Source: Saccostrea cucullata
Lineage: Eukaryota
Assembly: GCF_032062105.1 (NCBI RefSeq)
Contig: NW_026930920.1
Coordinates: 1-64,000, forward strand
DNA: 64,000 nucleotides
Reading direction: 5' to 3'
A program made the position numbers and the translations under genes. Below, in pieces: positions 17,602 to 63,546 of this stretch. Each line of letters begins with the position of its first letter. Position 1 is the first letter of the stretch. Below the pieces are notes generated by a model. That model was not told the origin of the DNA. It ran no database searches and worked only from the letters and a program-made list of their open reading frames with translations.

Positions 17602-46830
<29,229 letters not shown>

Positions 46831-49295: not shown

Positions 49296-51314
49296 TCATT
49301 TCATTTTGTTTCCGTTCGGATTTTTCCAGTACAAGTTTTTAGAATTTTCTACTTTCCCAGATGTATTGAATGGCCTGGTCAGCATTGGTTTAGTAGTCGG
49401 CGGCTGTTTCTTCCCGCGGTAATTCTGATCGCTTGGTGGTAGTATCGCCAGCACGTTCTGCTGCTCCTGTTGCGTGAGCACTGTCATTTCTAGTCTCTCT
49501 AGATTCTCCTGTAATATAGCCAGTGACGCCTGTTGAGTGTTCAACTGTTTCTGTTGCTGAGCCAGCAGCTGATGCGCGCTCTCTTTCTCAGAACCAAGTT
49601 TCATGATTTCCTCGTTCTGCTTGACCAACAAGTCCTCTAATTTTATCTGTCCGTCTGCTAACCTCTGGTGACCAGACGCTAAATGCTCGATCATGCTTAG
49701 TTTCTTGTTGATCACGTGCTCCTGGTTTGAGATCTGTAATTCTTGATCCTCGATTGTTCTTTTCAACTGACTTATCTGCTGACTTTTTTCATTTAAGTCT
49801 ATTGGAAAAATGCATGTTTGAATTAGAAAAATCTTTCACGGACTTGAATGTTTTAATTGCAAATTTTCGATTAAACAACTTTGTAACTTTGTGACTCTTT
49901 CATGAAATCGATTGTTTGTCTCTTTCAATTTCCCCATGGCGTTTTGCAAGTCTCTATATTTTCTTTGCATGTCCGCAATTTCGTCGTCCTTGAAGCGTAG
50001 CTGCTGCAGAAGCTGTGCCTTCTCTTCCCTCTCGCGTATCAATGCGTCTTTAGCACTGTCCAAAGTTTTCATCACGTCTGCCAGTTGCTTCTCTAGTTCA
50101 GACTGTCTCTGTATGATTGTATTGAATTCTCTTTGGGAGGCTTTTGTATCCTTAGATAGTGTAGACAAAGACATTTTCACACCGACAATTGCTAGTTTCT
50201 CTTCTCGTTCACTAAAGGAAGTATTCAGAGGCGAACTACCATCCCATGGCATAGAAATATCCTATTGGTGAAAAGAAGAAGTTAAGGAGGCTGGGGGGTC
50301 AACAGATTAACCACAAATTAACGAACAGATTTAACTTATTTTTTTAGATACGGTATCTTAAGCTGTCAACTATCATTTGGCAAAGAAAAAATTCATACAT
50401 TTTAGTTTTAAAATTTGATTATTTTTGTATATTTTTATATGGAGCTCTTCTTTTAAAGGAGATCGAAACAGTCTGAAAATGGCTGCCACCCCCCAGCCTC
50501 TTTAAAAACGAGAGTTTATACAGAAATTGCACATTATATTGTAACTCAAATTCTTAATCTGTATTTTACCTTTGCCGTTTTTTCATAAAAATCTTCGGAA
50601 TTCAGAGTATCTGTAAATATAAAAAAAAAAAGGATTGTCATATAATCTATAACAACCTTTGTAAATAATATTCGGGAAAAGGTTGTCGTAAATAATAAGA
50701 ACAGACGGTTAGCTGAACTGAACTTCTTAGAAAATGAATGAGTTTGAAATATTTTACTTTCATACATTTACTGATTGAGTCCGCGTCTTCTCTCTCAGTT
50801 CTCAAGTTTTCAACCACGTGATTGTACCCACAATCCTTTAGGACTTCACAGAATTGGTTATATCCGCTAGGGCATGACTTGAGGACCCGTTGTATGCACG
50901 TGTCTATTCTGTCTTTATATGTTCCCTGTTGCAGCACGTCGTCTTTATCCGAGGGAGTCAATACGCCTCGATCCTCTAGAGTGTCACAAACTATCTGGAG
51001 GTTTATCTCTTCATTCAGAGTTAAAAGGTACCTTTCAAAGATACATCATTGTAAATTCATGTACTTCAAATAAAAAATACACTTTTATTCATAGACATAT
51101 CAAGCAATACAGTTGAATGAAATATAAATCACAAACCAGGAAAACAAATAATATCAAAAATTGCAAGCTAAGGCGATGATGACATTCAAATAATCTCCAA
51201 GAGATGGAGATAAACATTACAAAAATACCTCAGAAAACTCCATTTACCATCGAGAAGATAGGCCTGTTCTACATCGGGATTGAATGTGACTTTTCTCTGG
51301 TCTTTTGTTTCCAT
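49296..51314 (-). CDS. CARD-like + coiled-coil protein A (~423 aa); probable exons 51314-51229, 51031-50772, 50610-50570, 50261-49880, 49798-49296
   Basis: YLLTLNEEINLQIVCDTLEDRGVLTPSDKDDVLQQGTYKDRIDTCIQRVLKSCPSGYNQFCEVLKDCGYNHVVENL follows the CARD helix pattern. Downstream exons are Q/E/K/L heptad-rich. The first and fourth donor sites are uncertain. Confidence 0.75.
50286..50501. mobile_element. Kolobok-type MITE in an intron of CARD-CC gene A
   Basis: TTAA|GGAGGCTGGGGGG ... CCCCCCAGCCTCT|TTAA. Confidence 0.85.
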
Positions 51315-52155
51315 TCTGTTAATAAGGATATGGGTATGTATCAAGTGTGTTCGAGACTTTGATTCTGAATTCACACTTCCTCTAAAGATTGATAAAAGGT
51401 TGCGAAACAAAGAAACCTAATTTAAATAAATATGGTCTTTAAGACATCTTTTATAAATCTTTATTTTTTTTTTTGTTGTTGAAAGACCTAGCTGTTTCAG
51501 GCACAAAGCTTAAAGGAATATCGAAAAAGATACACAGATTTTACTTGTTTTATTTTTATCTTGCTAACTAATGAAAATACGTTGAAGCTCAGATTACACA
51601 AAATATAACTTTCCTAACAGTAGAATTGATAGATTTTTTGGAGATTAAATCTTACCTTTAATTAAGGAGATGAGCACCGCCACTACTTCTGGCTTTTTGA
51701 GCTCCGAGTGAAGATTGTAAGGACTGAGGAAGAGTTTGGCTTAGTTCCATTTTGTCTCTTTGCAATGATTTAGCATTTATTGTCCTGACGCTTCTATCTG
51801 AGACAAATGTTTTGTTGACAGAATTTAATTGTCTCAGACGTGATCTGTTTGGCATTTATTATTCTCTTCTTTATTTTCCAGTGCGAACCTTTTCTGATGA
51901 GAACTCTGATTTGACGTAATCAGGTTTTAGACAATGAGATAGGGTCCAATTTTAAATTTGAATCATCGCTGTAGTTTTTAACCTGGATATTTTTTATGTC
52001 AATAGGTTTGGGGGTTTAAAGACTTGTTATTTGAATTCACCATGATTTAAGACTTAGACATTAACAATATTAACTTTTCATAGAACAATGACAAATCAAT
52101 TAATTTCTCTGAAGAAGTGGCCTAGAACAACAGAACCTTTAGTTAAGGTTCATGA

Positions 52156-53040
52156 CTAGAGGTACTCAGTGTGAGCACTGAGCTCACTTAATGATATCTC
52201 CCCGCCTTCCATATGATTATAATGGCAAAATTCATGTATTGCACTGGGAGACCCGAATTAAGTGTTAGATCAAAAAGTAAAATAGAAGGCACACAATGGA
52301 ATTATGATATCAAGAAATCTGTGAAAGTTTTAAATTTTATTCAGTGCTATAGGAGGAGTTGCCGATAAGAGATGTTATCCTTCAATATTATCGAAAGAAT
52401 AGCAGTGGCCATGTTTTTGCTATGGAAAACCCAAAATATGTTTCCGATCAAAAAGTAAAATAGGATCGAGGTGCAAAATGGCCAGATTCTGTGGAATCTC
52501 ATTAAAATTTCATTCAATGGTATAAGAGGAGTTGCGGATAAGAGATGGGTACCCCAAAGCGTAACAGACGGACATCCCGATCACTATATACCCTACTGTT
52601 TTTCAAGCGGGGATGTAAATTCCCGTGCACTTGCATGAATTGATAAATTTATTTTTTTCCTCTTAAAAGGCTTAATAATTTCTGAACAATTCTCGTAAAA
52701 AAAAAAGTTCCCTAATTCCCCTATTTATATTTTTCATGTCTTTGTTTCAATTTTCCTTTGCGTTTTTAATACCTCCCGCTTGATCGGGATGTCCGTCCGT
52801 CTGTCTGTTACGCTTTGGGATACCCATTTCTTATCCGCAAGTCCTCTCATACCACTAAATGAAATTTGATGAGACTTTCACAGAATCTTTATTACATATT
52901 GCCATCATGACCTCCTATTTTACTTTTTGATATATTTGGGGTTTCCCGTAGCAAAACATGGACACTGCTATTTTATTCATATAGGAATGGGAAGCGGGGG
53001 ATATCATTTAGTGAGCTCATTGCTCACAGTACCTCTAGTT
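52156..53040. repeat. Inverted pair of a Helentron-like repeat (52156-~52615 and ~52773-53040)
   Basis: ACTAGAGGTACT..GTGAGCACTGAGCTCACTTAATGATATC mirrored by GATATCATTTAGTGAGCTCATTGCTCACAGTACCTCTAGT. The internal gcggataagagatgggtaccccaaagcgtaacagacggac is also mirrored. Confidence 0.75.
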
Positions 53041-54069
53041 CAACATAGGTTACTGTTGCACTAGGAAGCATGTATGTGAAATAACAAAAATATTTTGGTC
53101 ATGATTTCTATGAAACCTGACCCTAGCAACCAGTCAATTTTCCATGTGGATGGACAAAAAATATCACTTAGAACAATTCCCAGTTCAGCTTGGATTTACA
53201 GTAACGTTACATAATTAGCTTATGAAATTTACAAAGCTTTCCTTCACTCTTTAAATATACATAGAATAGAAATTCGGCCGAAAGTCAAATAGTGTAGCAA
53301 ATAGCCTATTAAAAGTTCTCGCACGGCACAGGGGCGGAGCTTAAGTCGTCTCATCGTTGTCGACAGCAATTTAAAGTTCCTGATGTTATTAATTTTCTGA
53401 CCAATGAGAATCTTTCCGAGGTTGCCTTACTAAAAGTCCAAGCTTACCTTAGAACTAGCTGTAATAATTTAAGGATTTGAAATGTTCAATGTTTGAAACT
53501 GCAATCCTTTTAATGTCTCTTTCTACTAGTATTTTGGAGAGGATTTGCAGAGGCTGTACTTGATGTTCAATCCAATCAGTTAATTGACTTTAAATAAAAA
53601 ATACTGATTAAATTGTGAGAAAACTGTTTTCATCTAAAACATTTTAATAACGTCTATCCGAAAACTTTTTATTCATATTGAGAAACCACCACTTGCAGTC
53701 GAGGGCTGCAGATTTATAACTGCAATTGGTATAAAATTGGTATAAAATTTAAGACCTTTGAGTCAGTTCTTACTGGCAGTTACTGCGACCCGGGACCTGG
53801 TTTGAATGGCTTCGTCGAAAATGCAGCTAATAGACAAATAAATTGCCTTAAGCCAATGTGACCCCTCAACATGTTATTTTCGTAAAGCGTTTACTTCGTA
53901 AACTTTGTTTGCATGTGATGACGTACCAAAAAGAAAACTTCATGAACGCGATGACTTCAACTTTTCTATCGTCATTTAAAACTCCTCTTATCCTTATTAA
54001 TGCAGTTAATGTCATTATCACCAGAAAAAGGAGTTGATGTTTCCCAATTGATTTGATACATAAGGCCAT

Positions 54070-54192
54070 GCTCTACGTAAAAACGATTTCTGAGACGAGG
54101 CAACCTGTTGACAAATAAGCTGATTAAGCAAGGCTATGAAAAGTTTCGTTTAAAGTCAACATTTCACAAATTCTATAGAAGATACAACGGCC
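54070..54192 (+). mobile_element. Penelope-like retroelement fragment
   Basis: FLRRGNLLTNKLIKQGYEKFRLKSTFHKFYRRY resembles the RT C-terminal motif (LTxKLLxQGY...LKSS.RKFYGR) of mollusc Penelope-like elements. Confidence 0.65.
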
Positions 54193-54923
54193 TTTCAGCC
54201 TTTTCAATCTTTTATTATATCGATTGTAAGCATACGTTATGCACCGAAAAATATCCCAAAGGCAACATGGGACAGAGAGAAGTAGCAGTAAAACTGAAAC
54301 AATGGCACAAACATCTTCACTTTGTTGGGACATTAAAGCATTTCTTATTCCACAGCGCATCGCGTGCTATTTTAAAAATAAAATTTCTGCAAGTTGCGTA
54401 AATAATTGTTCATTATTATACCTGAATGTTCTTATTCTATATACATGTTATACTCAGTATTAATTCGTGACGATTTATATAAACCCTGGGCTAATTCACA
54501 AAAAGGATACAATAAAATTGATATATAGATTTAAATGCTATTATCGATGCTTTATTAAATGTTTTATTGACAATATAAGATGTAACATGATAATGAATGT
54601 CTAACAAAGATCACCTGTACCGCTGTCTTTGAAACAACCTTCAAGCTTCTGTGCACGTCTTCTGTGATCAAACTGTTCTAAAGGCATTGCGTTAACTTTA
54701 AAACGTGCAAATATAGAGTACAGGAATTTAAAAAAATAAAAATGTAAAGCACTGACTTAAAAAAAGATGGATGCCAGTAAATTGATACACTTTGCTGCCT
54801 CAAGTTTATATTTTCAAAAGCATATAGTCTTTAGATACAAAGGAGGCAGTTTTTCCATGTTCAGTCGAATAAACTACATATATTTGTTATTCCAATTGAC
54901 TTCGTTTTCCATATGAGATAAAC

Positions 54924-56554
54924 TCAAAACGACCATCCCTTTTCTTGGGTCTTCCCTCCGACACCGCCTCGTGGTGGAGGTGGTGTGAACTTCACGTTGG
55001 CGTGATGCGATCGATTCACGACCCCGCTCATCCAGGGCATGGCGCGGGGAGGAGATACAACCCGTGCATTCCGGCGACGCGGGGCACCGTACGATGTACC
55101 ACGGGTCGAGGCGGGAGCGAGCTGCTCCAGCAATCGAAGACGCGCCTCCAAACGCTCCAAGCGGTCCTCGTCCTTTTTCTGCATTTCCTCCAGATGTGCA
55201 ATCTTGTTATTCTGTTTTTCCTTTTCCTCGCGCAGTTCTGTGATTTGAATCTGCTGACGAGATCTTTCGCTGACGCCTTCATCATGAAGAACTTGAAGGT
55301 TTAGAATCTGAACCTTTTGTCTTTCGTTCTCGTCCTCAATATCTTTGATTTTCTGGAGTTGTTCATTCAGCTCCTGGTCTTTTTCTTCCAGCTCTTGTTT
55401 CTGTTGCTCTAACTTTTGTTTCAGTTTCTCTAATTCTTCAGCTTTCCTGTCGAGCTCTCCCTTAGTCTCAGTTTCGCATACGCCTTTGTCACGAAGTTTT
55501 TTGTTTTCAAGCTGAAGCTGAATGATTTGCTTTTGGAATGTGTTGAGTTTTTCAATAAGAGCCCGATTAGATTTTCGCAACCTCTCATTGTCTGCTTTCA
55601 CTCTCTGCAGTTCATCCCAACTTGGATTCGTCTGTTTTGTTGTCTGAACTATTTTTTGGAAAAGTTCAGCAATTGTTGGTGCAATGCGCACAAGTTCAGT
55701 TTCCAAAAGTTTCAAGTCTACTCCGGACTCGTTCACACCTACATTTGCCATAACTGCCGCTGCAGCTTGCACGGAAGCGGCTGCTTGGACGGGATCAGCA
55801 GCAAACGACACATTAGTACTGGCGCGAGAAATGGAAGATGACTGTCTGCTGTTCATTGTATTTTGTCTGTCGGCAAGGAGGTTTGCAGATATTTCAGTAT
55901 GGTTCTAAAGGAAGAAAATATACCTTAAAGATTTGACATTAGATAATAACTATTATTGTTTATAATTCTTTAAATTTCGAATAAAATTTGACCTGAAACA
56001 AATAGGTCTCCGATATTTGTATTATTTTGAAATACAGTACCTGGTCACAAGAACCTCCGGCGGCTGCAGGATCTGAAACACGTCATCGCAAATGAGCAAA
56101 TATTAAAAATCTCAAATACAACATTTAATTCTCTTCTTTTACCTTTCATAATTACTTCTTTTAATTGTACAAATAAATGGCTGTTTTTTTTAAATTAATC
56201 TTTCAGCAAAAAAAAAAAAGAAAAAAAAATCAGCTAACCTTCAGTAACTGGTTCCTTATGAACAGCGATCTCCATTTTTTCGTTGATTTCCTCAAATCTT
56301 CCAGAAGACTCTTGGCGGAGGAAATGACAAAAAGTTTCATATCCCTTGTCTCCCGTTTCCAACAAAATATTAAGAAACCTCTCAGCCCGCATCAATTTCG
56401 TGTTCGGTTTAACGTTATTTATGTCCTTCTTGTTTTCTTCCGTATAAATCCCGGCCTCTATCATTTTGTCTGTTATTTCCAGAACCGGAAGTTCCTGTTT
56501 TAGGAACATCCAGTTCCGCCACAACTTTCGCTCGTTTTCCGGATTCATTTTCAT
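54924..56554 (-). CDS. CARD-like + coiled-coil protein B (442 aa); exons 56554-56239, 56072-56041, 55904-54924
   Basis: ERKLWRNWMFLKQELPVLEITDKMIEAGIYTEENKKDI...RAERFLNILLETGDKGYETFCHFL is CARD-like. 316+32+981 nt splice in frame with GT/AG sites. Long heptad region. The frame stays open upstream to an AG at ~56625, so an extra 5' exon is possible. Confidence 0.85.
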
Positions 56555-58381
56555 CTTTTCTTCGTCATCTTCTTCGATTTTCTCTTTCTGAGCTTCATCT
56601 AGCTGATGTGTTGACTTCGACTTCTAAGATTCAAAATGGCTTCCACAATTCAAATTTGATTTGCCTTTGTGTCTTTGCATTGTTCCCAGTCATTTAAATT
56701 ATATCTGTAATTTTATTCGTAAGATCAGAATTCTTCACGGTGATGAGCCTTCGTTGTTCAAATAATAAAGTTGGGGTCCCATAGGTCAAAGAAGGGGGTC
56801 GGATTACACAAATATCCAATAAATATTCCCGCTAGCGATTGTTACATATTGAGATTATTTTTATAAAATTAATAACTAGGCAGATAAATCTCTATTTCTG
56901 GCAATAACAACTCTGACTACAGAGGTAACCTGTACGACAACGATACCAAACTCATTAATACTTCAACCGATCATGCATCAGAGGCGGGTTCGGATTTTGG
57001 TACACATGAAGAAGAGGGTATTTACAGTTTTAGGTTTACTGGTTTCCAAAGATTGCACATTTTCTGAAATCTTTGTTTGTCAGCTACATGAACATGATAT
57101 TTAAATTTGTCATTTTATTTAATTTGAATACGACATCAATCATTTCTTTAATATTAAGCTATCAGCAAACTTTTAAAATGCTCATGTAAAAATAACGCAG
57201 GCAATTAAAGTTTTACACATAAACTTATTTCAGACTGAAAAAATCCCCATCAAAATGATATGTAATCTATTTTTAGGTTCTAGTCTTCCGAAATCATTTA
57301 AATAATTGCAGCTTATAGAATTACATGATTTAAGCCATGCGTTGCTTTTTGTTTAAGAGCCATTTCTGTGAATATGAAGAGAAAGGAAACATCCAACATA
57401 TTGAATGTCAGCGTTAAAAATAATGCCAAAAGCAAAATTAACAAGGGAACCGCAAAGCGGAACATCCCCTGGCAAAAAAAGCATATCTATAAATCAAGGC
57501 AGCCCTCGACATCAATCTCGATGCAAATAACGTAACTTCCGTTACGTATACAAGGACAAACTAACCCACCCACACACACATACATGTACATAAAAGCCCC
57601 TCAAAAGAAATATGTTATCCACTTTCTCGCTGAGCAGACCAAATAAAGGCACATTTTAATGATTTTCGAAAAATCCACTTCTGCAATATCAATGTTTTAA
57701 AGCCATTGTATGAGTGTATGTGTGAAAGCTTATCGATACATATTAAAAAAGGGGCTGCGTTTAAAGGAAATGGATAAAACTGAAACGTCTCAGACTGTTT
57801 TTATGCATAGACATCGGAAGCATATTAAAAGTGCCCCCCCGCTCCCGGTTCTGACGAATATGGGCGCTTGAAATAGGAGAGTCTTCTGTAGTATGACAGA
57901 GTGTAGGGTGCTTGTACAAAGAAAATCAAAATAATGAAATGTTTTTATCTTTCCATTAACATCAAATAAACTTTTCTTTTTTAATGTATGACCCTCTCTT
58001 CAACGCAACATATCTGATGCTTTTGACAAAAGAAGTAAAGGAATTCTTAACTCAAATTTATCCTCACGATATTATTATATGCTCACATGTTCTGACTAGT
58101 TACTCACATAACTTAATGCAATAACTCTATGGATTGCTTAAAGTTCCTCTATTTGTCATTCTAAGCATGGTTACTTTTTCTTGAAGTCGCCATTCTGTAG
58201 ATTACAGGGTGTTATATACCCTATTTCTCTGGCTGTAAGACGTCACTTCTACATTATCAACTTTCGCAAACAATTCAATAAATTAATGAAGAATAAATTA
58301 ATGAAGAACGAGGGTATGAATTATTATTTTCCTGCACTACTGTGTCATAGCTCACGGTCCTATAGAAAATATTGCTTTCTT

Positions 58382-60490
58382 CACTCTAAAAAAAGTTTTA
58401 CTATTAATTTTCAAAATAAGTATTTGCATTTAGAAAAACAATAAACATTAAGTAATACAATTAGTCAGAATAGTAAGTAAAAGGCAATCCTGCTTAGTAA
58501 CTGCAATAATAAATAGTAAATACCAATAAAACAATTACTTGTCAATTCTTTTACTATTTATTATTATAATTACTGAAATAAGTATTAAAATAAGTATTAA
58601 GACTACTTATTTATATACTCAATTTATTACTCATTTCTAGTGATCAAATTTATATTTTTATTTCATAATTTTCTTAAATTAAGTAATTGGAATACTTATA
58701 CAAGTTTGAACCATTTACTTATTTCATATACATGTGGGATTGAAACAAGTAATTCATTTACTCATAAAAGTATAAACCATTTACTTATTTCATGTACATG
58801 GGATTGAAACAAGTAACTACTCATGTTTAGTAAATCCTTATTACTTCATTAAGAGATAATATGCTTTCTTTTTACTAGGTTTTATGAATTATTACTAAGT
58901 AATTGTAAATCTGAAATTAATAATTTAATTATTAAAATCAAGAATATTATTACTTCAAGAGAATGCCAAGTAAATGAAATATTTATCATATTTACTAAAA
59001 TCGACATTATTTCTTTGTAACTGTTTTATTATATTAAGCAATAAAACATTTAATTCCAATATCAAACGCCTTCTAAATAGAATAAGTTGTATATTTTTAA
59101 AGACCATTTTAAAAATGGTTGATAGTTTCAAGTACTTAATACAACATTTTAGTTAGTATAACTTTTTTTGACATGAAGAAATATTTAGAAGAAATATAAC
59201 TCCTCATCACAGACAATTAATATGGAAGCCATTAAGAATTCAGTCCTGATAGTAATTAGACTACCATTTTTAAGTAATTATTTGTATTGCAACTGCTCTG
59301 AATTCTCCTTGATTCAGTAAATAAATTATTGTTTTAAGTAAATCAATTGAATGCAATTTAAACAAGATGTGCTTGTGAAATACTGACCCCCCCCCATATG
59401 GCAACACAGCAAAGGTTTAACTTTTCTTATATACAAATTCAATATATTGGTATTTCTTGATCTCTCAAAGGTCAAGGTCAAATGGTCAATGTTATTGGTA
59501 TCTAATGAAAGGTCCTGCCATAAAAGATTCATATCTGAAATAAGAAAGCACTATCCCCAACCCTTCAGAAGTTATGGTGAAGTTTACTAACTTTGAAATG
59601 TAGATCAAACTCCAAGGTCAAGGACAAAGGGTAAGATTTGATGGCAAACCCAAAGAAAGGTCTTGTCACAAGGATGAAATATGTAAAGTATGAATGCACT
59701 AAATCCAACCTTTGTAAAGTTAAAGTCAAGGTCTGCTTTTTAAAAGTAGGTCAAACTCTAAGGTTAATGTCAAAGGATCAAAGTTCTTGGTATCTAATGA
59801 ATGGTCTTCTCACAGGAATTATATTTATATAAGTATGAAAGCCCTATCTCTTATCGTTCAAAAGTAATGGCCAAGGTTAACAGTTTTTTTTCACAAGGAT
59901 TGAAATCTCCAAGGTCAAGGGCAAATGGCCTAAACGCCAAAGCCCCAAGAAACTCCCTGCATAAGATCATCAACTGCATTATAATTGCTCAATTTATTTT
60001 ATGCATAAAATCATAAAGCTGCACATACTTAACATTACGGCAGGAAATATATGTATAAAGCACTTGACGTTTTCGGGACATGCATCCTAATATTCCTTAC
60101 GACAAAAGAATAAAGTTGATGCATGTACCGGTAAACACGGTATATATTAATTTATTTATAATTACAAACTTATTTGCATAATTTATCATTGCAGAATTCC
60201 TCAGAAACTTAAAATTAGACAATGCTTAAGTAATTGACATGTATAAGTAACTCTTTTAATTATATTTAGTAAGTGTTAATTACTTATCTAAACAAAATTC
60301 AGTAAAGAGGAAATACAAAGTAAATCAATTCTTTAAAATACAAAAATCAAGTAAAACATTTCAATCTAGTAATTTACATATGTTTCAGTAATTGATTTAA
60401 ATTTTTAAGTAAAGGCTTAGTAATTATCTATTACTTATCTTTGTTATTTCAAGTAAAAAATGACTACTAAGTAAAACTTTTTTAAGAGTG
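58382..60490. mobile_element. AT-rich non-autonomous CACTA/EnSpm-like element containing a Helentron-like insert (~59360-59920)
   Basis: TT|CACTCTAAAAAAAGTTTTACT ... AGTAAAACTTTTTTAAGAGTG|TT. Dense AGTAA/TTACT motifs throughout. Confidence 0.7.
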
Positions 60491-60932
60491 TTTTAATCTG
60501 TTTTAAAACTTTTAAAGCATTTTTGATTTGTAAAAAAACTAAAATTGTTGTTTTTCAATACTTAATATAAAAATACTCATCATAAATGTATGTGACATGA
60601 AAATTATGATTGATGAACGATATGAATTAATGGCAAATAAAAACTCTGAAGTTCTGAAAGCAAGACTTGAAGTCATTTATTTCATAAACATGAATTCATC
60701 GATAAAAAGAAAATAACAAATACAGTAAAATCATGAAAACAAAGGAAAGAGTCAAAATTTTGTTTGGAAAATTAATATCCATCGAAATTTTACATTGATG
60801 AAAGCACAAAAGCAAAAAAATACAAAGAGATGGAATATCCAAAAAAAATTGCCATTTATTACAACAGATAACATGGATAATGCTGAAATATTTATATGCT
60901 ACCGTGCTGATGACTTTTAATATTAGAAGTCT

Positions 60933-63546
60933 TCAAGTGATTTCGCTATTGTACATCTGACCTAAGAGCCGTTTGGTTGTCCTGAATTTGGGATCGCGAG
61001 TTTTGATGCCTTTATTCTTGTTGACGGGAGCTTCCTCTATCTGCTTCAATCTTTCTTCAAGCCTTCTCAGACGTTCATCGCCCTGCCTCTGTTTTAGCTC
61101 CAGCTGACGAATCTGCTCCTGTTGTTTTAATCTATCGTCTTTCAATATGGCGATTTCCTCTTGTTGCCGTTCGTTTTCTTGTTGGCCTTCTTCGTGTAGT
61201 ATCTCTAGTTTCGTGATCTGCCTTTTCTGTCGTATGATGTCCTTTTCGATTTCCTTTATTTTCATGAGCTGGATGTTAAGCTCCATCTCCTTCTCTTCCA
61301 AGGCATTTTTCTGCTCCTCCAATCTCCGTTCCATATCTTGCAGTTCTCTTGCCTTACGTACCAATTCTTCTTTAGCCTCTTTCGCTCCCTCTCCATTCTC
61401 TCTTAAATTTTTATTTTCCAACTGCAATTGAATGATTTTCTGTTGAAAATTGTTAAGCTTTTCTATCAAAGCTCGATTAGTTTTGCGCAGTCTTTCGTTT
61501 TCATCCTTGACCTTACGGATTTCTTCCTCGCTGACTGGTATGTTAGATGATGTTGTTTTCGAAATCTTCTGGAATAGCTCAGCAATGGTTGGTGCAATGC
61601 GGACGAGTTCTTGCTCCAAGATATTCATATCGACTGATAAACTTTTCTCGTTTAACCGTCTATCGTCGGAAGATGCTGCTGATGGTGGTTGATCACTTAC
61701 CACGTTTGATGATTGTGCTGGCTGTGGTTGACCAGGGAATCTAGTTACTGAATTCATCTCTCCCGTACTCGGTTGGCGAACCATACCTCGAGCGGCATTG
61801 TTACTGGTCGGCCGCCGGGAGGAGGCGCTGTTTGGAGTACTTCCTGAAGTCTGTGACCTCCATGCTTGTCTCGCTGATTTTCGGTTCTTCTCTCCGGTCT
61901 CCCCGTCTCTACTAATATCTGTGCTTCCGCTCTGCAATACACAAGTAAAGTTCTAATGAATATGTTTATAGATTTCAACTTCAAGATTATAATTCCATAC
62001 GCATTATACTGAAGGAAATACTTAAAATAATTGAAGAAAATTACTAGTGGTATGGAGAATTAAAATTTTCATGAAGAATTTGTGTATTTTATCAAATAAC
62101 AAACATTTTCTGATTTTCAAACACAAAACAGTGAGAATGCCTTTGTGTATTCATGTAAAATGATGACGAAATTCCATTTTCTTGAAATCTTTTCTACATG
62201 TATATCGAAATAAAAATTTTCAACCACTTTTCATTTCAGTTAGAACTCCTTACCGACGCCGTGGAAGGTCTGTTGGAGCCTCGGGTGTCAGGTCTAGGGT
62301 CACCTGAGGCAGCAGAGGCTGTAATTGATATAAATAATCCAATTAATAATAGCATTAATTAAACTGATTTCAAGACAAGGTCATTGGAATAGTTTGTTTT
62401 TCAAGGAAACTTCAAGACTTCAGGGCTGTTGTATCGATATTGAAAAACCTTTGTTCTAGAACTGCAGAGGTGTTCCTGGGATTAAAGTTACAAAAATTTG
62501 AGTTACTTGAAAGACCTTTTCTTTGTCTCTGTTTCCTGACCCGATTTATATGAATAGTCACGTGACTAGATCTGCAGGAAATGTTAGACCAAAGGGAAGT
62601 TGTGGATAAATGTGTGATTTAAACCTTTAAAAATTAGGGTAACCCCAGTGACGTCAATACATGGTCAAATTTCCAGAATGTAAAGAGAAAGAAACTAAAA
62701 ATGATTTTTAAGATTAAATTTTCATCTTGCTTTATCATTTAGCAAATACCTCTTAACAGACGTCATGTTTTTTTATCTTTCATTAATTGATGTTTCTTTT
62801 TGAAAATGTATTTCATTCATCTATACATTAACCCTCAATAACAATCGAAACAAACTATTAGGTCTATTTTATATAAACATCTATAAGTTTTATACAATAC
62901 CAAGATAAAAAAAACTCATTTAATTAAGATATTAAAGATTTAGAGAGGAATCGGAATGAATACGAATCAAATACAGAATACTTCATTTACTCCGTAAGTA
63001 TTACTCATGCATCTACAAGGAAATGTTATATTTCCCTTATATCTAATATCAATGGTCAATAAGTAGAGAAAGAAAATATTTTTGAAACTTTCTCTGCAGA
63101 TAGTTTGTTTTGTTTGATAAGTTTACTCTTCATCCTTTTCAAAAAACATTCTCTCAGATTACATTATTATTCTTTTCTACCGAAATTCTGCTACAAAATA
63201 TTTCTTAAAATTGATAAACTCTCTTACCATCATCCACTAGCGGATGGACGACCATGACGTTGCTGCTCGGGAGATTGAGTTTCTCCATCAGAGACGTATA
63301 TCTGTTATCACTCCTCATATCGTGCAGGACGGTGGTGAACATCTCGTAACCCCTCTCTCCTGTCTGGATCAGCACATTTAGGAACTTCTCGGCCTTCATT
63401 TGTCGCGTGCTAGGTTGCGCCATCATAATGTCTCTCTTATTTTGAGCAGTAAATATCCCAGCCTCCATCATCGCGTCGATGAAATCCTCTACATAAATCT
63501 CATTCTTCAAATACTGCCAATTCTTCCAAAGCATTCGCTCATCCAT
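60933..63546 (-). CDS. CARD-like + coiled-coil protein C (460 aa); exons 63546-63228, 62318-62254, 61931-60933
   Basis: MDERMLWKNWQYLKNEIYVEDFIDAMMEAGIFTAQNKRDI...KAEKFLNVLIQTGERGYEMFTTVL is CARD-like. 319+65+999 nt splice in frame. Clear paralog of gene B with the same intron phases. Confidence 0.87.

Follow-up and report, generated by a model that had tools for sequence, protein, structure and literature searches.

Three tandem genes with a CARD and a long coiled coil

The 64,000-nucleotide window analyzed here, positions 1 to 64,000 of contig NW_026930920.1 of Saccostrea cucullata, contains three adjacent minus-strand genes (A, B, and C), each of which encodes a CARD that a disordered linker joins to a long coiled coil ending in a basic tail (Table 1). 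A sequence-only reading had described the three neighbors as a repeated set of CARD exon, micro-exon, and coiled coil, and our exon models together with the Pfam CARD scores (below) confirm this. The shared exon pattern was retained, but the coiled coil of A turned out to be a single exon, not two, and A has an extra first coding exon. The model of gene B is identical, letter for letter, to RefSeq XP_062568385 (P0001), and 446 of 460 positions agree between the model of gene C and S. echinata P0049.

Table 1. Features of genes A, B, and C, in window coordinates
Feature	Position	Strand	Details
Gene C exon 1, CARD	63546-63228	-	319 nt, ends phase 1
Gene C micro-exon	62318-62254	-	65 nt, ends phase 0; carries RPSTA kinase-type motif at 62257-62271
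Gene C last exon	61931-60933	-	Linker with DGETGE and RxPSTGE motifs, conserved helix, coiled coil, basic tail
Gene B exon 1, CARD	56554-56239	-	316 nt, ends phase 1; XP_062568385
Gene B micro-exon	56072-56041	-	32 nt, ends phase 0
Gene B last exon	55904-54924	-	Linker, conserved helix aa 180-206, coiled coil aa 212-378, tail
Gene B tail motif PWMxG...SHHANVKF	54987..55037	-	Conserved in Solemya and heterodont members; lacking in C
Gene A extra first coding exon	51314-51229	-	86 nt, phase 2; encodes the disordered N-terminus and the first part of helix 1 of the CARD
Gene A RVxF-type PP1 docking motif RKVTF (predicted)	51282..51296	-	aa 7-11
Gene A CARD exon	51031-50766	-	Ends phase 1
Gene A micro-exon	50610-50570	-	41 nt, ends phase 0
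Gene A last exon	50261-49296	-	Coiled coil and basic tail; single exon, not two
Gene A lesion in this assembly	49800-49879	-	27 extra bases in 8 small pieces; in-frame TGA 49836-49838

RNA reads and contigs showed transcription and splicing of all three genes. The joint between the CARD exon and the micro-exon of C was crossed by 13, 96, and 16 reads in three runs and by one contig, the joint between the micro-exon and the coiled coil of B by 1, 7, and 3 reads in three runs and by a contig, and all three introns of A by 0-2 reads per run and a contig. Two joints fall outside the 15 listed, with 106 further joints beyond these: micro-exon to coiled coil of C has as its sole support the loose end of a contig that resembles the micro-exon end, and for CARD to micro-exon of B the support is RefSeq plus a contig that extends 235 letters beyond its coiled-coil part. 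The likeness of many RNA reads is only 90-99%, implying that they do not come from the assembled individual. RNA joints, contigs, and RefSeq together support the earlier assumption that the CARD and coiled-coil exons are joined in one transcript. A promoter motif search over 49000-66000 returned nothing usable: the strict NF-kB site sits where thousands of repeat-like reads pile up, the ISRE-like matches lie in or at exons, and X-box matches number 6 against 3.0 expected.

An RNA contig and one or two raw reads cross the lesion of gene A without the extra bases, which appear as eight small gaps, and a contig from a second study also crosses it, with 28 gap letters. RefSeq P0060 skips the lesion and is missing 18 residues that all eight other A rows have; the intron that this RefSeq reading places at 49790-49878 is ruled out by the RNA. 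A second copy of A, sought as a check on the lesion, was not found. The extra bases and the internal stop are likely a consensus or assembly error, and the reference model of gene A is probably faulty here; alternatively, the gene may be genuinely broken in the sequenced animal.

CARD fold, coiled coil, and tail

The CARD exons of C, B, and A score 32.1, 37.1, and 28.5 bits, respectively, all above the Pfam CARD (PF00619) cut-off of 23.9 bits. CARD was the only family above its own cut-off in A, B, and C, and the family search found no NB-ARC, NACHT, or death domain and no caspase, helicase, or kinase, in agreement with what had been read from the sequence. The 19-residue hydropathy maxima lie between 0.67 and 1.35 across the three proteins, none of these maxima lies in the C-terminal tails, which are basic (net +6 to +10), and no C-terminal transmembrane helix was found.

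The AlphaFold2 models of B and A each contain six helices and one continuous long helix (residues 212-378 of B and 170-391 of A), so the death fold that had been expected of the N-terminal domains is predicted for both as a six-helix CARD. The linkers are modeled as disordered, with pLDDT <50 at residues 100-156 of B and 106-168 of A. Among solved structures, the B CARD best matches Apaf-1 (Z 14.3, rmsd 1.6, 89 aligned), a caspase-9 complex (13.2), and CARD9 (12.6), and the best natural structural match of the A CARD is the Apaf-1 CARD (E 2.7e-3); such matches cannot name a binding partner.

The caspase-activating CARD platforms Apaf-1/CED-4 and RAIDD provide the best structural matches of the CARDs, and the trio could likewise gather CARD partners. 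Those proteins have NB-ARC, WD40, or death domains, whereas A, B, and C lack them, and their oligomerization would come from the coiled coil. CgCARDCP-1, a short protein with a CARD and a transmembrane segment, is an oyster CARD adaptor without an enzyme domain, like A, B, and C. The same holds for oyster CgMAVS, which according to excerpts of PMC5557890 contains a transmembrane helix as well as a death domain, both absent from A, B, and C.

A lineage apart from CARD9/CARMA

An N-terminal CARD, a long coiled coil, and the lack of an enzyme are common to A/B/C, CARD9/CARMA1-3, and the invertebrate CARD-CC proteins (PMC5978004; bioRxiv 10.1101/046789), and control through a disordered region, as in CARD9/CARMA, is plausible for the trio too. 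On this likeness, A, B, and C could be nucleators of Bcl10/paracaspase filaments that switch on NF-kB. The nearest language-model clusters are CARD9 (0.88, 155 of 256 features), which is a lead only, and Bcl10-like CARDs are present in the S. cucullata genome. Of the Bcl10-binding basic patch, R35/K41/K69/R72 of CARD11 (PMC3411838), 27 of 28 rows have K or R at the R72 position, and 0, 2, and 16 rows have one of these residues at the R35, K41, and K69 positions, respectively.

A true CARD-CC/Bcl10/paracaspase set is, however, already known from molluscs (PMC5978004), and S. cucullata holds a CARD9/11-like gene on contig C4042, from which 41 residues reach CARD11 at E 3e-7 and all seven matches are CARD9/11; by our reading, this gene also lacks R35 and K41. 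The whole CARD of B matched CARD9/CARD11 only at E 0.16-0.33, the B/C profile listed caspase-9 and CED-3 but no CARD9/11 at E 0.01, and the A profile gave no CARD9/11 at E 0.1. In the CARD tree (98 columns, 37 of 66 rows kept, vertebrate rows absent), the C4042 gene groups with a Bcl10-like CARD with support of 97/89, and a forced clade of this gene with A/B/C was narrowly rejected (p-AU 0.0425), placing the trio, by a borderline value, outside the CARD-CC/Bcl10 clade in the phylogenetic comparison called for earlier.

The gene structures differ as well: in the oyster CARD-CC orthologue the CARD is split and the coiled coil is spread over many small exons, whereas the coiled coil of A, B, and C is one exon. 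CARD9 has a short linker, and in the autoinhibited CARD-CC1 dimer (6n2m) the coiled coil follows directly after the CARD, whereas a disordered stretch of ~60 residues or more intervenes in A and B. With no orthology by sequence or tree and this long linker, we consider a CARD9/CARMA-like role for the trio improbable. The proposal of an independently evolved adaptor is supported as regards an origin apart from CARD9/CARMA. With the CARD9/11-like gene lying on C4042, the trio is not the invertebrate stand-in for it.

Old paralogs with a fixed gene order in bivalves

Profile comparison related A to B/C with a probability of 99% (E 5.7e-18), and a coiled-coil-only profile still matched at E 5e-10, whereas its reversed control reached 0.29, bearing out the view of A as a distant but true paralog. 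B and C had been called close paralogs; they are nearer to each other than to A, but identities of 45% in the CARD and 53% in the coiled coil mark them as an old rather than a recent pair. The A and B/C CARDs form one clade in only 40% of bootstrap trees in the careful tree.

B and C both occur in scallop, mussel, and ark shell, and the order C-B-A is identical in scallop, where OWF46636 (C), OWF46637 (B), and OWF46638 (A) are consecutive accessions on a 354 kb scaffold. The genes are single-copy orthologues in a fixed order. The family extends to Solemya, and all named members are bivalves; no non-bivalve member was found among the named rows, in a set with most rows unnamed, limited word searches, and the taxon looked up for 20 rows. 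The openly accessible article texts on CARD-containing bivalve coiled-coil proteins and on six accessions yielded no paper on this family, and related literature searches returned only the two versions of the invertebrate CARD-CC study (PMC5978004; bioRxiv 10.1101/046789). Most orthologue pairs have a better conserved coiled coil than CARD (C and its pearl oyster orthologue share 81% and 54%, respectively), and in A the CARD equals or exceeds the coiled coil. This pattern, of single-copy genes in which conservation mostly favors the coiled coil over the CARD, does not resemble a fast immune expansion.

Putative linker kinase sites and the division of motifs between B and C

RPx[S/T] occurs in 25 of 28 B/C-family linkers against 4.2 expected, the rows being related and not independent; S. 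cucullata B itself has no such site. The CDKL5 consensus fits RPx[S/T], and many CDKL5 targets are microtubule or cilium proteins (excerpts of PMC9444073). A precedent is the inhibition of caspase-9 at Thr125 by DYRK1A and other kinases (excerpts of PMC5410359). The tail motif is present in 10/10 B rows and 0/9 C rows, one of the latter apparently truncated. DGETGE is present in 9/9 C rows and 3/10 B rows, and the Solemya member has both motifs, a distribution suggesting that the tail motif of the ancestor was kept in B and its linker motifs in C. TRAF2/3, TRAF6, and pLxIS motifs are scattered in the family rows rather than conserved, and none is found in Saccostrea A, B, or C.

The CDKL5-type sites, the basic tails, the single copy and fixed order of the genes, and a coiled coil that mostly outconserves the CARD would also suit a structural or cytoskeletal role, such as in sperm or in the ciliated epithelium of gill or palp, with the coiled coil as a fiber, the tail on microtubules or membrane, and the CARD only aiding self-assembly. 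We find this unlikely, as every full-length member retains an intact CARD and that of A is conserved at least as well as its coiled coil.

A predicted PP1 docking site in gene A

The RVxF motif of A is present in 10/10 A orthologue rows, which are related sequences and not independent events, and arises by chance in 3-9% of shuffled N-termini. It lies in residues 1-20, modeled as disordered (pLDDT <50), and RVxF binding to PP1 is a textbook interface. The predicted A-PP1 complex scored 0.90 against 0.00 for the best of three controls, on a score that is uncalibrated for peptides; of 78 solved complexes 51 attain the pass mark, as do 2 of 108 mismatched pairs. At least 86% of the contacts are shared between model runs, the partner pLDDT is at least 57, and residues 7-12 of A are placed on residues 168-169, 242-243, 261, and 288-293 of PP1. 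The PP1 sequence was taken from a metagenome record and shows 99% identity to those oyster PP1 exons with which it was compared. Memory of, or likeness to, solved complexes may be the source of this result.

From the model, A is predicted to dock PP1 through the RVxF motif adjoining its CARD, at what would be the usual PP1 groove of RVxF regulators. As in A, the regulators Phactr1, spinophilin, and PNUTS carry basic-V-x-F in a disordered segment; those named in the excerpts of PMC7599070 have no CARD, and A has no RPEL or PDZ family match. We found no earlier description of a CARD protein with its own PP1 docking site, as predicted here, and the motif in this one paralog sets the trio apart from CARD9/CARMA.

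PP1 dephosphorylates the CARDs of RIG-I and MDA5 and initiator caspases, and the predicted docking site directly adjoins the A CARD. A, B, and C, having no enzyme, sensor, or conserved TRAF motif, might then be decoys or brakes whose CARDs sequester those of caspases, RIG-I/MAVS, or Bcl10, with A-bound PP1 acting on these clients and not on B/C. The long, highly conserved coiled coil and the split motifs exceed the needs of a simple decoy, which makes this reading quite unlikely.

A possible phosphorylation-controlled scaffold

The analysis establishes the architecture, expression, homology, conserved gene order, and conserved motifs of the trio. In our overall reading, held with somewhat less than even confidence, these ancient paralogs belong to a CARD-linker-coiled-coil family, so far found only in bivalves and separate from CARD9/CARMA, and they likely form a joint scaffold, controlled by phosphorylation, in which CARDs are kept paired. 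We infer its steps as follows. The helix of 170-220 residues would dimerize in parallel, as homo- or heterodimers; a kinase of the CDKL/DYRK/MAK type would phosphorylate RPx[S/T] in the B/C linkers; and A, predicted to dock PP1 through the RVxF motif beside its CARD, would reverse the phosphate mark. B and C would divide the motifs of one ancestral gene, the tail going to B and the linker to C, and would therefore act jointly. The last step, in which the CARD pairs would draw in a partner with a CARD of its own, is the weakest, and our best guess for this partner is a CARD-caspase of the caspase-2/-Y type or an adaptor with a CARD and a death domain.

We make this guess because Apaf-1 is absent from molluscs, which show cytochrome c release and have CARD-caspases, according to excerpts of PMC10959488 and PMC7836458. 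The S. cucullata CARDs scoring highest on the family profile include two genes with a CARD and a death domain. The A/B/C family is a conserved single-copy candidate for activating mollusc CARD-caspases. A bolder version, which we regard as a long shot, is that the trio forms a bivalve-invented coiled-coil platform for caspase activation that replaces the missing apoptosome and is switched by kinase and PP1, with A as the PP1-targeting subunit and B and C as complementary halves. Whatever the CARD partner, a second CARD-coiled-coil lineage is distinguished here from the CARD9 orthologue.

A language-model search with the coiled coil and tail of B gave no match of at least 0.9, and for another locus, G, coiled-coil homology to A/B/C/D did not stand out clearly from reversed controls. 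The grouping of A/B/C and loci D, E, and F in one clade is neither supported nor rejected (p-AU 0.46). Elsewhere, at least three loci besides A, B, and C have the same CARD and coiled-coil design.

Gene models, transcription and fold of A, B and C

The gene models bear out the cluster that the sequence-only reading had placed at 49296-63546, with micro-exons of 65 nt (C), 32 nt (B) and 41 nt (A) and with every CARD exon closing in phase 1. Each of these three exons scores above the Pfam CARD cut-off, and the proposed splicing of CARD to coiled coil is backed by RNA reads and contigs, directly at five of the seven coding joints and indirectly at two. RNA depth was highest for C and lowest for A (three raw-read runs, tissue unspecified). 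The expected six-helix fold appears in the predicted models of B (RefSeq XP_062568385) and A (RefSeq counterpart XP_062568420), followed by a predicted disordered linker, a single long helix and a disordered tail. The best structural alignments of the modeled B CARD were to the CARDs of Apaf-1, caspase-9 and CARD9, barely separable at Z 12.6-14.3.

The last exon of A contains an in-frame TGA in the window. RNA from two studies, whose source animal differs from the assembled one, spans this stretch without an intron and without the 27 extra bases, with eight small gaps inside 80 bases. The RefSeq A model lacks 18 residues that are present in all other A rows, and a search for a second copy of A found none. 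Since eight tiny insertions fall within 80 bases, we infer that a noisy consensus is likelier than a mutation.

A family so far named only from bivalves, apart from CARD9/CARMA

The B coiled-coil exon retrieved 59 relatives (all 17 species-named ones bivalve) and the A CARD exon 11 (7/7 named ones bivalve). A family profile searched against 1.84 billion representative sequences gave 18 long, very strong matches, then a sharp fall to fragments or CARD-only matches; none of these searches found a named member outside bivalves. Look-up added Potamilus and Sinanodonta (A type) and Solemya (B/C type), so the family likely arose in early bivalves, which are of Cambrian-Ordovician age. A is homologous to B/C over the full length and also with the coiled coil only, and scallop C, B and A lie on one scaffold with consecutive accessions.

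The trio shares the CARD/coiled-coil design of CARD9/CARMA, but its CARDs are not clearly closest to theirs in sequence. CARD-CC, Bcl10 and paracaspase are reported in molluscs by Staal et al. (PMC5978004, bioRxiv 10.1101/046789). A search of this genome gave 93 CARD matches, 79 of them examined in sequence; one, the C4042 gene, is likely the true CARD9/CARD11-like CARD-CC of this oyster. The first half of its CARD matches BCL10 (E 2e-4) and the second half CARD11 and CARD9 in 7/7 matches (E 3e-7 to 1e-4), whereas the B CARD reaches only E 0.16. In a CARD tree of 37 rows (29 of 66 left out for speed), C4042 groups with a Bcl10-like CARD, and forcing it together with A/B/C is narrowly rejected. 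The Bcl10-binding patch, with positions from PMC3411838, is half retained and does not discriminate. The C4042 gene has a tandem repeat in the intron after its second CARD exon. Two CARDs on C8135 look Bcl10-like by inspection and tree position.

At least three more loci (D, E and F) share the exon design with a weaker coiled-coil match (E-values 3e-5 and 8.5e-6, against 0.13-0.24 reversed); a fourth, G, is built alike and shows no clear match. D has three RPx[S/T] sites; relatives occur in scallop and Potamilus. The CARDs on C4823 and C20852 are among those nearest to the family profile.

Table. Features around the trio and at other loci of the genome
Feature	Location	Strand	Description
Upstream neighbour of C	contig 67.8-69.2 kb (L080:3805-5205)	minus	466-codon open frame
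AAA ATPase gene exons	window ~44400-46470	plus	AAA and AAA_lid_3 matches
High-copy repeat elements	window 50300-50500, 52200-53400, 59400-59950		in A's intron and between genes
CARD9/CARD11-like CARD-CC gene (likely)	G000:C4042:54.6-67 kb (L055, L083, L084)		two-exon CARD, then many small coiled-coil exons
DIRS-type retroelement look-alike	G000:C4042:78.8-83.3 kb (L085)		long overlapping frames, judged by eye
Two adjacent Bcl10-like CARDs	G000:C8135:764 kb (L009), 776 kb (L001)		label from reading and tree
D	G000:C2365:111.9 kb (L088)		CARD + single-exon coiled coil; XP_062583656
E, F (tandem)	G000:C3498:146-150 kb (L091)		CARD + single-exon coiled coil
G	G000:C20211:29.4 kb (L095)		CARD + single-exon coiled coil
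RAIDD-like design	G000:C4823:6.6 kb (L086), C20852:133 kb (L087)		CARD + death-domain-like exon; second domain judged by eye

Linker motifs, predicted PP1 docking and a possible mechanism

RPx[S/T] occurs in the linkers of 25 of 28 B/C-family rows against 4.2 expected, and is absent from the S. cucullata B linker. DYRK and MAK/ICK have the same consensus as CDKL5. The motif agrees with the CDKL5 consensus (PMC9444073), and DYRK1A is reported to inhibit caspase-9 at hinge Thr125 (PMC5410359). The B-type tail is found in 10/10 B and 0/9 C rows, and DGETGE in 9/9 C versus 3/10 B rows. Because Solemya combines C-type linker motifs with a B-type tail, the tail being kept in B and DGETGE in C, the motif split fits subfunctionalisation after duplication. 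An older Magallana gigas C model (P0048, UniRef K1RK16) lacks the RPSTA micro-exon, through a missed exon or alternative splicing.

The extra first exon of A encodes RKVTF, where basic-V-x-F is present in 10/10 rows from oyster to freshwater mussel; no B/C row has it ahead of the CARD. The predicted A-PP1 complex scored 0.90 versus 0.00 for the best of three controls. For this score, which is uncalibrated for peptides, 51 of 78 solved complexes passed the mark, against 2 of 108 mismatched pairs. At least 86% of contacts agreed between runs (partner pLDDT at least 57), and the modeled motif contacts PP1 residues 168-169, 242-243, 261 and 288-293, which we take to be the RVxF groove. The score may stem from the predictor having memorised solved complexes.

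The pairing of a CARD with a coiled coil is already known; what appears new is the independent lineage with its predicted PP1 docking site, and no description of the family was found in the open literature. Tentatively, A/B/C would dimerise as a CARD scaffold regulated by a kinase and by the predicted PP1 docking. The weak step is the CARD partner: a CARD-caspase is a first guess because Apaf-1 is missing from molluscs, which do possess caspase-2 and caspase-Y (PMC10959488, PMC7836458). A structural role is rather unlikely, and would be in keeping with the conservation of the coiled coil, the single gene copies and the basic tails; that A/B/C are decoys, or that they nucleate Bcl10, is less likely still. 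Of immune-function signals, no conserved TRAF motif was found in family rows, and a promoter scan of the A-C region gave none.

Surroundings of the trio

The AAA ATPase gene, presumably NVL-like, converges on A. The upstream neighbour of C encodes a basic, low-complexity product with RPxT-like and RVxW-like motifs and no Pfam match. The C4042 retroelement frames look reverse transcriptase- and recombinase-like by eye, and the repeats in the window attract many partial reads.
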